Below are positions 2,175 to 62,462 of a stretch of DNA of 64,000 nt, in pieces. How positions within the stretch are numbered: position 1 is the first letter of the stretch; each line of letters begins with the position of its first letter. The stretch is from a virus (lineage: Duplodnaviria > Caudoviricetes), in IMG/VR virus record IMGVR_UViG_3300028797_000116, positions 61,691-125,690 of that record; one strand, written 5' to 3'. The translations under genes were made by a program, and so were the position numbers. A model generated the notes under the pieces. It was given only the letters and a program-made list of their open reading frames with translations, did no database searches and was not told where the DNA came from.

Positions 2175-2741
2175 ATGACAGAAATAACAACTACACCTTT
2201 TTCTATTGTTTATGATAGTTTTTTATCAAAAATAACAGATGATATGTATATGGAGTTAACTGAATTAGATACTTTTAGATTATTAGAAAATTTATTAAAA
2301 ACTGCTATGCAAAAATTTGAGTTTCCTCGTATAGATATTTTTGATTATGAAGAAAGCTATGTAGATGATGTAGATACTTATGAAGGTGTTGAAAGTAATA
2401 ATGAAGAAGTGCCTGCAATTATTTATGCTGGCGGATATTTTAATAATTTGCTAACAGCAGAAGAAATTAATATTCTTTCAACATATATGATAGTAGAATG
2501 ATTAGGTCAACAATTAGCTAGTGTTGAAAATACTAGAATGAAATATAGCGGAAGTGATTTTAAATTTACTTCTCAAGCTAATCATATGTCTAAAATATTA
2601 GCTCTTAAAAAAGATTATGAAAGAGAAGGTTTCCATCTTCAAAGATTATATAAGAGAAGAATTAAAGATGAAAATGGAATTATGCGCTCTACTTTTAATA
2701 GTATTATGGAAAAATCCCCTAGTAGTAGGGAGGTTTTATAA
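2175..2741 (+). CDS. Putative head-tail adaptor (code 4, 188 aa)
   Basis: ORFs 2175-2501 and 2538-2741 are in frame, joined by one TGA (IVE-W-LGQQL); GGAGG RBS. Confidence 0.6.
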
Positions 2742-3067
2742 TGAAAATAGAAACTGGAGCGGAAATAAAAAAAGAAGCTGTAATAGATAATATAAAAAAA
2801 ATAATTAATCAAACATATAAATTATTACCGAATAGAGAAGAAGCTATTGATTGAGAAACGCCATTAAAAACAATAATAGAAGAATTATCAGGAATGGATA
2901 TTTTATTAAATGAATATCATAGTATCTTATTTCCTTTGCTTTGTAAAATGCAAGGATTATTTTCTTTTCAAAATGATGAAGATTATTTAGATTATAGAAG
3001 ATGCATTTTTGAATGTTTAAATTTGCTTACTTCATTAAAGGAGGCGATTGCGACATGTCAGGATTAG
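2741..3067 (+). CDS. Conserved phage protein (code 4, 108 aa), absent from ORF track
   Basis: TAATG overlap with previous gene; MKIETGAEIK...YKLLPNREEAID-W-ETPL...YRRCIFECLNLL; ends TAG. Confidence 0.65.
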
Positions 3068-4008
3068 AAGATATGAGTACTCGTCTTCAATATAGTGGCG
3101 GAAATGCTCAAATAAATAGAATGAATCAAGATAAGCTAAAGAGTTTAAAAAAAGCTTTATTATATTCTTATCAAAGTGCTACCGCAATATTGGTAGATGG
3201 AAGAGAATTTAGATGTTTAATTAATCCAGACCATTTAAAAACATCCTTTGATGATAAAATTATATCAATTCCTTTTGAAGATATTTGTTTAAATAAAAAA
3301 GATAAAAAAATAGAATCAATTGGAATAAAAGCAGGAGATGTGTTTACTTGGAAAGAAAATAATTCAGATTGGTTAGTATTTTTACAAAGATTAGAAGAAA
3401 CAGCTTATTTTAGAGCTGAAATTCGTAGATGTAGATATACTGTTTTAATAAATAATATTGAATATAAATGTTATGCAGCAAGATCTGAAGTAAATGAAAT
3501 AGATTGAAAAAAACAAAAAGATATAGTTTGAACTGAACCAGATTATACATTAAAAATGTATATTACTAAAGATGATAAAACAGAAGCATTTTTCCATAGA
3601 TATAGTATTATTAAAGTTAATGGAGAACCATGAGAAGTTCAATCTATTGATAGTATAAATGCGGAAGGTATTATTATTGTATATTTAAAAGAATGATTTA
3701 AAAATACAATAGCAGAAGAAAAAGAAAAAGAAGATGCGGAAAAGGTAGATAATGTTCAACCAATCTCAAATGAAGGATTTATATCAGGTCCTGCCGCATT
3801 ATATCCATATGATACTGCTATTTATAAAATTAATAATATAGATAATGGAAGTTGAATTATAAGTAGTAAAAAAGTAAAAATATTAGAACAAAATAATCTT
3901 GAAATAAAAATTGAAATTATTTCAGGACGTAGTGGTGAATTTGAGTTAATATATAAAAGAGATAATGAAGATGACATTAAATATAATGTTAAAATTCAAT
4001 CATTATAG
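3055..4008 (+). CDS. Putative head-closure/neck protein (code 4, 317 aa)
   Basis: AAGGAGG RBS before ATG 3055; open through several TGA to TAG 4006-4008. Confidence 0.55.
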
Positions 4009-4021
4009 AAGGAGTTAAAAT

Positions 4022-4615
4022 ATGAAAAGAGATACTCGTAGTACAATTCCATTAGAATCATCTTTTTTAAGTTTTGAAAAAGATGTTGAAATTATTTTAA
4101 AAGCTCTTTTTGTTGAGAGCTTCCCACATAGTGATAGTTTAAAAAGACTTTTAGTTATTAATACAAAAGATTGTTTAGATAATACTGAAAGTCAAGTTTA
4201 TAAAAGAAAAATTGCGGAAATGACTTTAGCTAAACTAATTCAAGAAGGATATATAAAATTAAATCCAAAAATTAGAATGCCTGAACATGAAGAAGTAAAA
4301 GCTTATATTATTATTTCTTCAGATAATTATACTCCAAATAAAGAAAATCCTTATTATAGAGATTGTACATTGACTTTTGATATTCTATGCCATCTTGACT
4401 ATTGAGATATCGGTGATTATAGACAAAGACCTATTAAAATAGCAGGTTATATAGATGGATTATTAAACAATGCAAAATTAACTGGAATTGGAGAATTAAA
4501 TTTTTTAGGATGTAATGAATTAGTAATAAGTGAAGATTTAGCTGGATATTCTCTTTCTTATAGAGCAATTCATGGTAATGATGATCGTTTACCGCCAAAA
4601 GAAAATAATGATTAA
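4022..4615 (+). CDS. Putative tail terminator/completion protein (code 4, 197 aa)
   Basis: One TGA (FDILCHLDY-W-DIGDYRQRP); position upstream of the tail tube gene. Confidence 0.55.
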
Positions 4616-5348
4616 TGAACTATTATTATTATCAAAAAATGATATACCTTTTATAGAGGCTCAAATTACAATACATCAACCAACAATTAAAGAAATCGCA
4701 TATATAGGAGAAGAATCTTTTTTTACTGGCTATGAAATGTTAAACTTTTCTAAAAACTTATTATTAGAAGAGGACAAAGTCAATTTAGAAAATGTAAGTA
4801 ATTTTGATATATTAATAGCAATACTAAAAGAGCGTAATGCGGTAATGCAAAAAAATAGGAATTGCGTAGAAATGGTTCTAGCTCTTATCTTTCCAGAATA
4901 TATTATTAGTATTGAAAAAGATGCTTTTATATTAAAAAAAGATAATGAAGAATATAAGATTAATAATGAAAATTTTGATGCCTTTAAAAATATTATTAAT
5001 CAGATGTTTCCTTTAAAAACTGGTGTTGAGTCTAATGAATATAACCCAACTGGAGATCTAGCTAAAAAAATTGCAGATAAGTTAAAAAAGAGACATCAAA
5101 CTTTAGGAGAATTAAAAGAAAGTGCAAATCAAAAAATTGATATGTTTAGTCGTTATATTTCTATTCTTGCAATAGGAGAGCAAAAAGACATAAATAGTCT
5201 TATGAATTATACTGTTTATCAATTATTAGATGAATTTGAAAGGTATAAATTAAAAATTGCTTATGATATAAATTTCCAAGCAAGAATGGCTGGAGCAAAG
5301 GATTTAAAGGAAGTTGAAGACTGAATGAAAGATATTCATTCAAATTAA
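4608..5348 (+). CDS. Conserved tail-module protein (code 4, 246 aa)
   Basis: MINELLLLSKNDIPF...AGAKDLKEVED-W-MKDIHSN; overlaps the previous stop. Confidence 0.6.
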
Positions 5349-5376
5349 TTATAAATAAAATAAGGAGGATTTTATT

Positions 5377-60778: not shown

Positions 60779-60807
60779 ATTATAACATATTTTTTCTTAC
60801 TTGTCAA
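60779..60807 (-). promoter_or_regulatory. sigmaA promoter
   Basis: TTGACA-17 nt-TATAAT with extended TGn. Confidence 0.8.
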
Positions 60808-60814
60808 ATTTTAT

Positions 60815-61465
60815 TTACTTTGTTCAAATTTTATTATTTTTATTACAATAATAGTGATTTTTACAAATTTCATTACAAATATGAATTTTAAAAGCTTCAT
60901 CAGCAGTAAAATATCAATCATTTTTACTATATTTATCATATTGAGCTTCAGATAATTTTATTTTATCTAAAATAAAATTTTTTATATTTGCTTGTAATGT
61001 ATTTTTCATATCTGAATAATTATAAAAATTTGATTCATTATCATTTTTTTCTATATTTTCAAAAATAGAATTTGAATAAATAAAAGTTGAATTTGGATAA
61101 CTAAATCTTTTATGTCCAGCTATATATATTAAAAAACTTTCTTTGCAAATTATTCCAATATTAAAAGTATATACTGGAGTTTTAGATATTTTTATTGAAT
61201 CCATTATTGTTAATGCGGAAGTTCAATCTCCACCTAATGAATTTAAATAAATTTTAATAGGTTCTCTTTCTAATAACGTCAATTCTAAACTATCATCTAC
61301 AAAATTTCAAAATCTAATAAATTCATCTACTTTGTTTGCTATTTGTGGAGTTAAAATATCAATTTGAATTTCTCTATTCATCATCTTTGTATAAGCTGGA
61401 ATATCTGTAAGAGTGTTAATATATTGTTGATATTTTTTTCTTTTATTTAAAAAAGATAATCACAT
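60815..61465 (-). CDS. ClpP-like protein lacking catalytic residues (code 4, 216 aa)
   Basis: PIKIYLNSLGG...MDSIKISKTPVYT...AGHKRFSYPNSTF...D-W-YFTADEA; starts ATG-TGA. Confidence 0.7.
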
Positions 61466-61493
61466 ATATTTATTCTCCTTTCTTAACATAAAT

Positions 61494-61522
61494 ATTATAA
61501 TATTAATATTTTTAAAAATCAA
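61494..61522 (-). promoter_or_regulatory. sigmaA promoter
   Basis: TTGATT-17 nt-TATAAT. Confidence 0.55.
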
Positions 61523-61523
61523 G

Positions 61524-62462
61524 TTAATTCTTTATTCCAGTATTGCTATTCATACCATAATGATATGAATTATATAGTTGTATATAAAAACTTTCTTTAT
61601 TATTTAATTCTATAGAAGTGCATTTTTCAAGCAATTCAAAAGTAAAATTAGATACACCTTCTTCTTGCATAGCTTGATATAATTTATTATTTGCTGGAGT
61701 ATCTATTCCAAGACCACATTTAATATGATCTCTTCAACGAGTTCTAATATCAATAGCTTGTCCAATATAACACATTCCAGAACTTTTACTTGTTATTTTA
61801 TAAATTCCTGTAATTTCAACTGGCCCTAAAACTCTAGATGCTAATTCATTTGTTTTTTTAGAATAGTACGCTTGCCATATAACCATGCGGATAGGCCTAG
61901 GATCGCGAAGCTCAGATTCTATAGAATGTAATATACGAATTTCTTTTTTATCAATTTCATCAAGAGATAAGGAATAGAATTTTTCTTTATTTTTAATTTC
62001 TTGCTCTCTTAATTGTGCTTGAATTGCGGCGGCGCGGGTAGCAGAGATTTTATTTAGATCTGCGCGGATTTGATCGGTTTCCGCAATTAATTTATCTTGA
62101 AGATTATTATAACTTTCATTAAGAATTTTAATATTATTATTTATATCTTGTTCTTTATCTAAATAATCTTTATCTAAAACATCACAATAATTAGCAAAGG
62201 CTCTTTGAGAAATTTCTTCTGCTTGTTCAATATTTTGTTGCATTGCCGCAATTTCTTTTTGCTTTTGTTCATATATATCTTTTAATAAATTTTGTTTATC
62301 TAATAATATATTATTTTCTTTTTCTATTTTTTCATTTTCTAATAAAATTTTTTCATTGATAGTATATATATTTTTATTTTTATTCTTTTCTTTTGTATAT
62401 AATAAATAAAAATAATAAACTAATCCACATAAAATAATACTTATAAATATTAAATATCACAT
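61524..62462 (-). CDS. Membrane-anchored coiled-coil protein with C-terminal GIY-YIG domain (code 4, 312 aa)
   Basis: AGGAG RBS; M-W-YLIFISIILCGLVYYFYLLY TM; coiled coil; TGIYKIT...CYIGQA...R-W-RDH...FTFELLE...E..YI...GMN. Confidence 0.75.

Follow-up and report, generated by a model that had tools for sequence, protein, structure and literature searches.

Gut phages in which the stop codon TGA is read as tryptophan (Trp), as in genetic code 4, were predicted by Borges et al. (bioRxiv 10.1101/2021.08.26.457843) to infect Firmicutes that themselves use the standard code. Among the phages described there are the virulent 'Agate' phages of ~127 kb from cattle and pigs, which have standard-code relatives at >80-90% average nucleotide identity. 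The same study reported that TGA accumulates in structural and lysis genes; it detected suppressor tRNAs in just 35% of the code-4 genomes and suspected non-canonical tRNAs. Evidence that recoded phages do use their alternative code has been given for TAG-to-Gln recoding (PMC9523058). Here we analyzed a stretch of 64,000 nucleotides (the window), comprising bases 61691-125690 of one linear 125,690-bp IMG/VR virus contig with a GC content of 27.7%, in which TGA is a tryptophan codon and only TAA and TAG are stops. A preliminary reading of the window from its letters alone (the original prediction) had proposed such recoding throughout the genome of a phage with a walled host and had noted that stop-codon-recoded gut phages were known, as is indeed published, including cases with standard-code hosts and standard-code sister phages. 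The explanation that best accounts for all the data, to which we assign a probability of about 0.8, is a phage with TGA as Trp and a graded recoding, whose own tRNA(UCA) serves as the decoder in a host that uses TGA as a stop.

The phage is of gut or rumen origin, of virulent type and siphovirus-like, and the window is its structural and replication half. The completeness of the contig is ~84% (CheckV). The phage was placed in a family of 135-146 kb phages from gut and rumen Bacillota. Through the terminase, 49 related IMG/VR loci were found with terminases 63-88% identical, and four relatives were taken in full for the whole-genome comparison. Two relatives that use the standard code served as references for the meaning of TGA, namely G005, a complete genome with terminal repeats, and G007, which is 94% complete. 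The nearest cultured phages have Enterococcus, Geobacillus, Alicyclobacillus and Thomasclavelia as hosts.

Read with code 11, the standard code of bacteria, the window falls into short open reading frames (ORFs), and when TGA is taken as a sense codon, ORFs of 2626, 1733, 1304 and 904 aa appear. Comparison of codes 4, 11 and 25 showed that the coding density of the whole contig increases from 0.68 under code 11 to 0.85 with TGA as sense, and that the ORF lengths are identical for codes 4 and 25. Since a genome this rich in AT also reaches 0.825 over the whole contig when TAA is made a sense codon, density alone is weak evidence, and it was rejected as a sufficient proof of recoding. The Pfam domains of DnaE, NrdD/NrdG, DnaB, RecJ, the SF1 helicase, Stealth, GT2 and the tape measure protein lie in the correct order across TGA codons, and full-length DnaE, NrdG and tape measure protein were recovered once TGA was read through. 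As had been predicted, several genes are missing under code 11: nrdG, a 174-aa gene described as RuvC-like, a GT2 gene at window 35930-36592 and a 105-aa zincin gene are not among the code-11 ORFs of at least 100 aa. Annotation pipelines set to code 11 would drop or truncate about half of the genes in the window.

The in-frame TGA codons behave as ordinary sense codons. Over the 147 ORFs of the whole contig there are 199 TGA and 234 TGG codons, so that TGA makes up about half of the Trp codons, and the TGA positions are evenly distributed along the gene length. The base 3' of an in-frame TGA is similar to that after any sense codon (p=0.5), while 41% of real stops are followed by T; as a signal for read-through, the +4 context of in-frame TGA is no different from that of ordinary sense codons. 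The original prediction had also noted that the reconstructed genes end in TAA or TAG, which is true by construction. The real support comes from genes that end in TGA in the standard-code relatives, because their orthologues in this phage stop at the same place with TAA or TAG. Such same-place ends were found for 5 of 8 and 8 of 15 orthologues, a rate equal to that of TAA-ended genes. The TGA stops of the standard-code relatives are real gene ends.

The residue encoded by TGA was determined from the homologues. At the positions opposite TGA, G005 has W in 53 cases, Y or F in 15 and G in none, and G007 has W in 68, Y or F in 13 and G in one. The W share opposite TGA is 56-71% in the standard-code relatives, and the residue profile of G005 and G007 opposite TGA is the same as their profile opposite TGG. 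For the window genes, 96 TGA columns are covered by these two relatives, with 139 residues in total, among which are 91 W, 11 F, 8 Y and a single G. At the codon level, about 1000 observations in the 49 related loci gave 443 TGG, 316 TGA, 120 aromatic codons and 4 GGA opposite TGA. The homologue columns are thus dominated by Trp, and the assignment of TGA to Trp was borne out. The motifs in which TGA had been said to occupy canonical Trp positions were also found, with TGA at the bracketed residue: MQY[W]FRG, CP[W]VN, PK[W]LN, NPET[W], QQ[W]LYTA, DSDD[W], GGYTGT[W] and ND[W]Y. Within the same genome, TGA-free paralogues have W at 5 of the 7 informative columns, and codon 42 of NrdG, a TGA, aligns with the W of CHNRDTW in PflA (pyruvate formate-lyase activase structures). 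The related loci, the whole-genome comparison, and the paralogues together with the solved structures thus form three independent lines of evidence, all in favor of Trp and excluding Gly. A tblastn comparison with Thomasclavelia phage TR-TP1 gave mixed TGA columns (Y 4, W 3, I 3 and G 0), the proteins being too diverged at 20-48% identity.

TGA is used unevenly, and the description of the recoding as genome-wide was overstated, since two genome blocks are nearly TGA-free. The TGA share of Trp codons differs among the blocks listed in Table 1 (Fisher p=3e-16). Recoding is concentrated in the late (structural and lysis) genes, with a share of 0.67 against 0.10-0.20 in two blocks, yet the share is 0.51 in the replication genes. 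Genes of abundant or early type in the window, namely SHMT (serine hydroxymethyltransferase), the Sak4-like ATPase and the 346-aa and 454-aa proteins near the head genes, are TGA-free. The same ligase and gyrase genes are TGA-free in G002, a heavily recoded relative, and in the lightly recoded G004, 13 of the 14 sense TGA codons are in the structural block. Recoding is therefore graded in the family. It is absent from G005 and G007, in which density is equal under codes 11 and 4 (0.86-0.88), TGA accounts for 17-25% of the stops, GC content is 32-33% and no tRNA(UCA) is found. It is limited to the structural genes in G004, with a density of 0.83 under code 11 and 0.88 under code 4, a GC content of 30.8% and an intronless tRNA(UCA). 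It extends to both structural and replication genes in G002 and in this phage, with a density increasing from 0.68-0.72 to 0.85, a GC content of 27.7% and an intron-split tRNA(UCA). Because the sister genomes span the range from none to heavy recoding, the family is useful for studying how a code change spreads.

The original prediction saw no tRNA-Trp(UCA) in the window. This holds for the window, which contains no tRNA, but the scan of the full genome that had been proposed located a tRNA(UCA) in the other half, at genome 22986-23288, inside the phage tRNA cluster and split by a 207-nt insert after U34. With default settings, ARAGORN called 24 tRNAs at genome 19.3-27.8 kb, including Trp(CCA), and none with the anticodon UCA. 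The code-4 ARAGORN and Rfam tRNA scans did not find tRNA(UCA) either, and only the intron-aware mode of ARAGORN called it; runs at low threshold gave many spurious 'suppressor' calls, which were disregarded. Since default finders miss an intron-split gene, this arrangement suggests why many recoded phages seem to be without a suppressor tRNA. The acceptor stem AGGGGCU and G73 are of the tRNA-Trp type. Both G005 and G007 have tRNA-Trp(CCA) and lack tRNA(UCA); because the latter is absent from the standard-code relatives, it tracks recoding.

The ends of the insert are exactly defined, since sister phages carry intronless alleles (G001, G004, G008 and G010), in which a 96-97-nt tRNA stands directly before tRNA-Trp(CCA). 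Seven insert-bearing alleles with the same core were found in all. In G002 and G009 this site is occupied by longer inserts, of 604 and 606 nt, which share the 3' core and contain an added endonuclease-type ORF that itself holds TGA. A search of viral contigs for the exact exon-intron junction gave no match. In the 207-nt insert the 5' splice site is preceded by U, the last base is G, and the sequence GAAGAUGUACUCC resembles the J8/7 consensus. The insert also gave a full-length but weak match to the Rfam group I model (RF00028; 15.6 bits and E=0.1 in a 331-nt search, with a gathering score of 50). These features make a group I intron a plausible but weak identification.

Other features were observed in and around the tRNA genes. 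Between tRNA(UCA) and tRNA-Trp(CCA), a small ORF at genome 23256-23534 contains the HNH-type motif DHINGKHNDHRLENLRFLCPNCH (identified by eye) and one in-frame TGA; just 4 nt separate the two tRNAs in G004. Inside the cluster, genome 20625-21065 matches the Rfam tmRNA model with 61.9 bits (gathering score 47) and was not called by ARAGORN. In G002, tRNA(UCA) (L187:4360-4417, minus strand) has no encoded CCA end, and a weak match to an HDV-like ribozyme (RF02682, 19.1 bits, E=0.56) comes directly after it, which recalls the theta ribozymes reported to adjoin phage suppressor tRNAs (PMC10879173). Intron-aware ARAGORN also called inserts of 733-752 nt in tRNA-Leu(UAA) and of 848 nt in tRNA-Asp (L057:972-1812, L065:965-1785 and L059:1126-2050; G001, G004 and G005). 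Several tRNA genes of the phage family may therefore carry mobile introns, as the intron-aware calls suggest; Rfam gave no group I match on the intron-bearing tRNA-Leu and tRNA-Asp of the relatives.

When the insert is removed, tRNA(UCA) folds into five arms, in which the UCA arm is followed by a 5-bp hairpin, a 4-nt linker and the T arm. The second hairpin has the loop CUCCAAA (in this phage CUCCAAC), a copy of the anticodon loop of tRNA-Trp(CCA). A pattern search for five-arm tRNAs detected 9 viral and 48 metagenome loci. Across the 30 distinct sequences, 99.2% of the cells of the five-arm fold are paired and 13 pairs show changes on both sides; covariation was observed at 3 of the 5 pairs of the UCA arm and, for the CCA-loop arm, at 4 of 5. 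As a caveat, most of both loops was fixed in the search pattern. An earlier search with the T arm only gave nine loci, and both loops were present in all seven that were fully readable, plus the copy of this phage. A more distant intron-bearing tRNA(UCA) in L261 (around 11300-11454, minus strand) has a long variable region without the CUCCAAA loop, and therefore the second hairpin is not universal among such tRNAs. In the literature we found no paper describing a two-hairpin tRNA design.

The same fold could be read the other way round, with the CCA hairpin, not the UCA hairpin, as the working anticodon of the five-arm tRNA, and with TGA decoded chiefly through near-cognate reading by the phage tRNA-Trp(CCA) or a host tRNA-Trp. 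From the CCA-loop hairpin on, the geometry is canonical (a 4-nt variable loop and the T arm), so the UCA hairpin is readable as inserted after position 26. A CCA anticodon is known to read UGA when the body of tRNA-Trp is altered in certain ways, as in the Hirsh suppressor, and the phage tRNA-Trp(CCA) is itself atypical, with 30 bits against the Rfam tRNA model. However, the UCA arm keeps its loop, CUUCAAA, constant although the stem covaries at 3 of 5 pairs (part of this loop being fixed by the search pattern), and the intron is at the usual anticodon-loop position, 34/35, of the UCA hairpin. The standard-code relatives retain tRNA-Trp(CCA) and miss only the UCA-bearing tRNA, and about half of all Trp codons would have to rely on near-cognate reading. 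Decoding chiefly by near-cognate reading is thus improbable, and we prefer tRNA(UCA) as the decoder.

Neither tryptophanyl-tRNA synthetase (TrpRS, a class Ib synthetase) nor a release factor (RF-1 domain) was found in the whole contig or in five recoded relatives, two of which are 97-100% complete. The scan for both genes had been proposed together with the remark that no release factor is visible in the window, and the remark now extends to this larger set. With no TrpRS found in the phage, the host TrpRS must charge tRNA(UCA). From sequence features we infer how splicing, Trp charging and the order of gene expression may proceed. The TGA-free genes would be translated first. tRNA(UCA) would be transcribed and would then self-splice as a group I intron. 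Host TrpRS would charge the product, for which the CCA-loop hairpin may serve as the handle that is recognized, and the charged tRNA would compete with host RF2 (release factor 2), so that the TGA-containing genes are read through. We tentatively propose that a single RNA gene, without a phage TrpRS or release factor, could recode a standard-code host, in which the UCA hairpin would decode, the CUCCAAA hairpin would present the Trp anticodon to TrpRS, and a mobile group I-type intron would in addition split the gene in this phage; and that the family could reflect a stepwise spread of recoding from structural to replication genes as GC drops from 33% to 28%. Taken jointly, these two proposals have in our estimate somewhat less than an even chance of being right.

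The host we favor is a walled member of the Bacillota with the standard code, in which TGA is a stop. The CHAP/PG-binding endolysin noted in the original prediction is real, and peptidoglycan-binding domains occur both in this lysin (CHAP and PG_binding_1) and in the tape measure protein (PG_binding_1). For the phage SHMT, relatives with 64-71% identity were found in small (0.8-1.4 Mb) metagenome-assembled genomes (MAGs) from gut and rumen, labelled Bacilli, 'Tenericutes' or 'Mycoplasma sp. CAG:472'. The search for prfB that had been proposed for the host was run on this donor lineage, not on an identified host. All five closest SHMT-donor genomes have prfB above the curated cut-off (457-510 bits) and 3-6 matches to penicillin-binding protein (PBP) transpeptidases, and three of the five have mraY. 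The presence of prfB and PBPs indicates that these genomes are neither code-4 nor wall-less. A walled host with a code mismatch is hence supported only indirectly, by the TGA stops of the sister phages, by the TGA-free blocks and by prfB in the SHMT-donor lineage; neither spacers nor other data gave a direct host link. Beside the tRNA cluster, genome 27488-27687 (~200 nt) resembles part of OLE RNA, matching positions 284-595 of the 616 in the Rfam model (RF01071) with 109 bits. This RNA family belongs to anaerobic Bacillota, and the match may be a clue to the host lineage.

If the host itself used code 4, as do the Mycoplasmatales, the phage would simply share the code of its host, without any mismatch. 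The high AT content of the genome would fit such a host, as would the names 'uncultured Tenericutes' and 'Mycoplasma sp. CAG:472' among the database labels of the closest SHMT relatives. The five closest of these donor genomes, however, have prfB, PBPs and mostly mraY, and TGA is a real stop in sister phages of this family. Large blocks of genes use TGG only despite the AT pressure, the phage has its own tRNA(UCA), which tracks recoding across the family, and its lysin and tape measure protein have the peptidoglycan-binding domains described above. We consider a code-4 host very unlikely, more so than near-cognate decoding, and retain the walled, standard-code host.

Two further readings can be set aside almost entirely. 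Glycine as the meaning of TGA (code 25), with Gracilibacteria or Absconditabacteria as the host, would give the same ORF lengths as code 4, and code-25 phages have been reported, but the standard-code relatives have Gly 0-1 times against Trp 53-68 times opposite TGA, GGA occurs 4 times against 443 for TGG, and in tRNA(UCA) the acceptor stem is of the tRNA-Trp type, G73 is present and the Trp anticodon loop is copied. Assembly or sequencing artefacts, pseudogenes or selenocysteine sites might be thought of in a metagenome assembly whose two ends are diverged copies of one module, but there are 199 TGA codons across ~60 genes with no further type of in-frame stop required, dozens of independent contigs hold TGA or TGG at the same codon positions, the tRNA is not shaped like tRNA-Sec (7-bp acceptor stem and 4-bp D stem), and Trp or aromatic residues, not Cys, stand in the columns opposite TGA.

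Several points weigh against TGA decoding by the phage tRNA(UCA) in a TGA-stop host. Because the replication genes contain TGA, suppression must start ahead of replication, and a simple 'late-gene switch' model is weakened by this. The SHMT similarity of 64-71% tells the origin of the gene, not the current host. Host identification by CRISPR spacers, as had been proposed, gave no spacer link when window 1-20000 was searched against 251 genomes of the SHMT-donor order; only AT-rich chance matches were obtained, none of them in a repeat array, the best short ones being 29-35 nt long with 94-97% identity. One match was real: a MAG contig of 2.5 kb, too short to show integration, on which three homologues of window 4022-6306 lie in syntenic order. 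The Rfam group I match is absent for the longer alleles (the 604-nt allele was searched), and 15.6 bits is far under 50. The missing part of the ~84%-complete contig could hold TrpRS or a release factor, but neither was found in recoded relatives that are 100% and 97% complete. Lastly, the TGA-free copies of ClpP and GIY-YIG at the left end might come from a chimeric assembly.

The last point concerns the contig ends. Genome 127-5500 and 120881-125690 (window 59191-64000) are direct copies of one module with 73-80% nucleotide identity, which consists of a 313-aa gene, ClpP, GIY-YIG, a small gene and NAD-ligase. TGA is absent from the left copy and present in the right one; in relatives the module occurs once. 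GC content and the nearest relative are uniform along the whole contig. The two copies are either a real, diverged tandem duplication or the product of an assembly that wrapped onto a second, co-occurring variant. The main conclusions are unaffected by this question, because the block pattern recurs in G002.

The features of the window and the genome blocks are collected in Table 1. In the endolysin (24669-25376) and the ClpP-like gene (60815-61522), the final TGA is 2-5 codons ahead of the TAA or TAG stop, so that either reading of this TGA yields a nearly identical protein.

Table 1. Genome blocks and features of the window; coordinates are those of the window unless marked as genome positions.
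Feature	Coordinates	Strand	TGA content and remarks
NAD-ligase, GyrA, GyrB, RNA ligase block	genome 1-17.3 kb		TGA = 0.10 of Trp codons
Small-gene block	genome 33.5-53 kb		TGA = 0.20 of Trp codons
Structural block	genome 53-96 kb		TGA = 0.67 of Trp codons
Replication block	genome 96-125.7 kb		TGA = 0.51 of Trp codons
Plus-strand arm	1-34292	+	Virion, tail and lysis genes
Minus-strand arm	34330-64000	-	Glycosyltransferase-type genes (4), SHMT, peptide deformylase, NrdD/NrdG, DnaE, SF1 helicase, RecJ, DnaB, Sak4-like ATPase, ClpP-like, GIY-YIG
Virion-module genes, family not known (188, 335, 197, 258, 309, 371 aa)	2175..7474	+	0-6 in-frame TGA each; mainly TGG or TGA opposite in related phages
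Tape measure protein, 2626 aa	8151..16031	+	PhageMin_Tail and PG_binding_1; 17 TGA, 4 TGG
Two large tail or baseplate ORFs, 1733 aa and 904 aa	16131..24054	+	22 TGA and 8 TGA, respectively; no Pfam family found
Endolysin, CHAP and PG_binding_1	24669..25376	+	Single TGA at codon 230 of 235; stop or Trp both possible
Small zincin-like (SprT/DUF6782) gene	32383..32700	+	TGA at codon 9; lost in code 11
174-aa gene, GT1, two GT2, Stealth phosphotransferase	34330..38246	-	3-6 TGA each; no Pfam match for the 174-aa gene (RuvC-like in the original prediction)
Serine hydroxymethyltransferase (SHMT)	38326..39546	-	540 bits; TGA-free; served as host-lineage probe
Peptide deformylase	41253..41729	-	1 TGA
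NrdG and NrdD	42751..45457	-	NrdG 3 TGA (codon 42 = W of the CHNxxTW motif); NrdD 1 TGA
DnaE-type polymerase III alpha, 1304 aa	45569..49483	-	6 TGA, 13 TGG; PHP, NTPase, finger and HHH in order over five code-11 fragments
298-aa gene with repeated W-x-C-K-C motifs	49551..50447	-	3 TGA; paralogue at genome 8955-9740 has TGG at one such position
SF1 helicase, RecJ-like, 363-aa gene, DnaB-like helicase	51727..58152	-	3, 4, 2 and 3 TGA, respectively
AAA_24 (Sak4-like) gene and 313-aa gene	58750..60745	-	Both TGA-free
ClpP-like and GIY-YIG	60815..62462	-	ClpP-like 5 TGA, 0 TGG; GIY-YIG 2 TGA; diverged copies of TGA-free genes at genome 2138-3770, with TGG at matching positions
Second NAD-ligase copy, C-terminal part	62932..64000	-	Cut by contig end

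Group I introns in the anticodon loops of bacterial tRNAs are represented by the cyanobacterial and plastid tRNA-Leu(UAA) and by the Azoarcus tRNA-Ile, the latter with an intron of about 205 nt. The insert in tRNA(UCA) resembles them in its place in the anticodon loop after position 34, its length of ~200 nt, the U as last exon base and the G as last intron base, and in that the longer alleles of the phage family carry an endonuclease-type ORF. In contrast to those introns, the split gene here is that of a phage stop-codon suppressor tRNA, the Rfam score is 15.6 against 50 bits, and self-splicing is putative.

The Phassvirus-like gut phages of ~136 kb (PMC10607447) and the Enterococcus phages H1, EF1 and VRE9 are similar to this phage in genome size, siphovirus-like layout, a very long tape measure protein and a DnaE-type polymerase, and their terminases are 42-44% identical. 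They differ in the code, since Phass-1 recodes TAG, not TGA (TAG to Gln, PMC10607447), and the three Enterococcus phages use the standard code. From phages of Mycoplasma and Spiroplasma, whose wall-less hosts natively use code 4, this phage differs by its TGA-free blocks, its own tRNA(UCA) and its CHAP and PG_binding_1 domains. The 'Jade' phages of Borges et al. likewise read TGA as Trp in a Firmicutes host and carry a phage tRNA(UCA), but they have their own TrpRS and RF1 in a code-change operon, neither of which was found here or in the five recoded relatives.

The closest similarity is to the published TGA-recoded gut phages, whose description this phage fits, and it possibly belongs to the Agate clade, with which it agrees in genome size, recoding type, predicted host phylum and the existence of standard-code relatives. 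That phages of standard-code hosts recode TGA to Trp is already established, so the window mainly adds one well-documented case. Shared with the Agate-type phages are the large virulent type, the origin from animal-gut-type metagenomes, a predicted Firmicutes host, TGA opposite Trp, close standard-code relatives, a suppressor tRNA(UCA), the highest TGA content in structural and lysis genes, and TGA inside homing-endonuclease genes. Unlike in those phages, TGA here reaches well into the replication genes (DnaE, DnaB, NrdD/G, RecJ and the helicase), where it accounts for 51% of the Trp codons, and compared with the code-4 genomes of Borges et al., in 35% of which a suppressor tRNA was found, the tRNA(UCA) of this phage is hidden by an intron.

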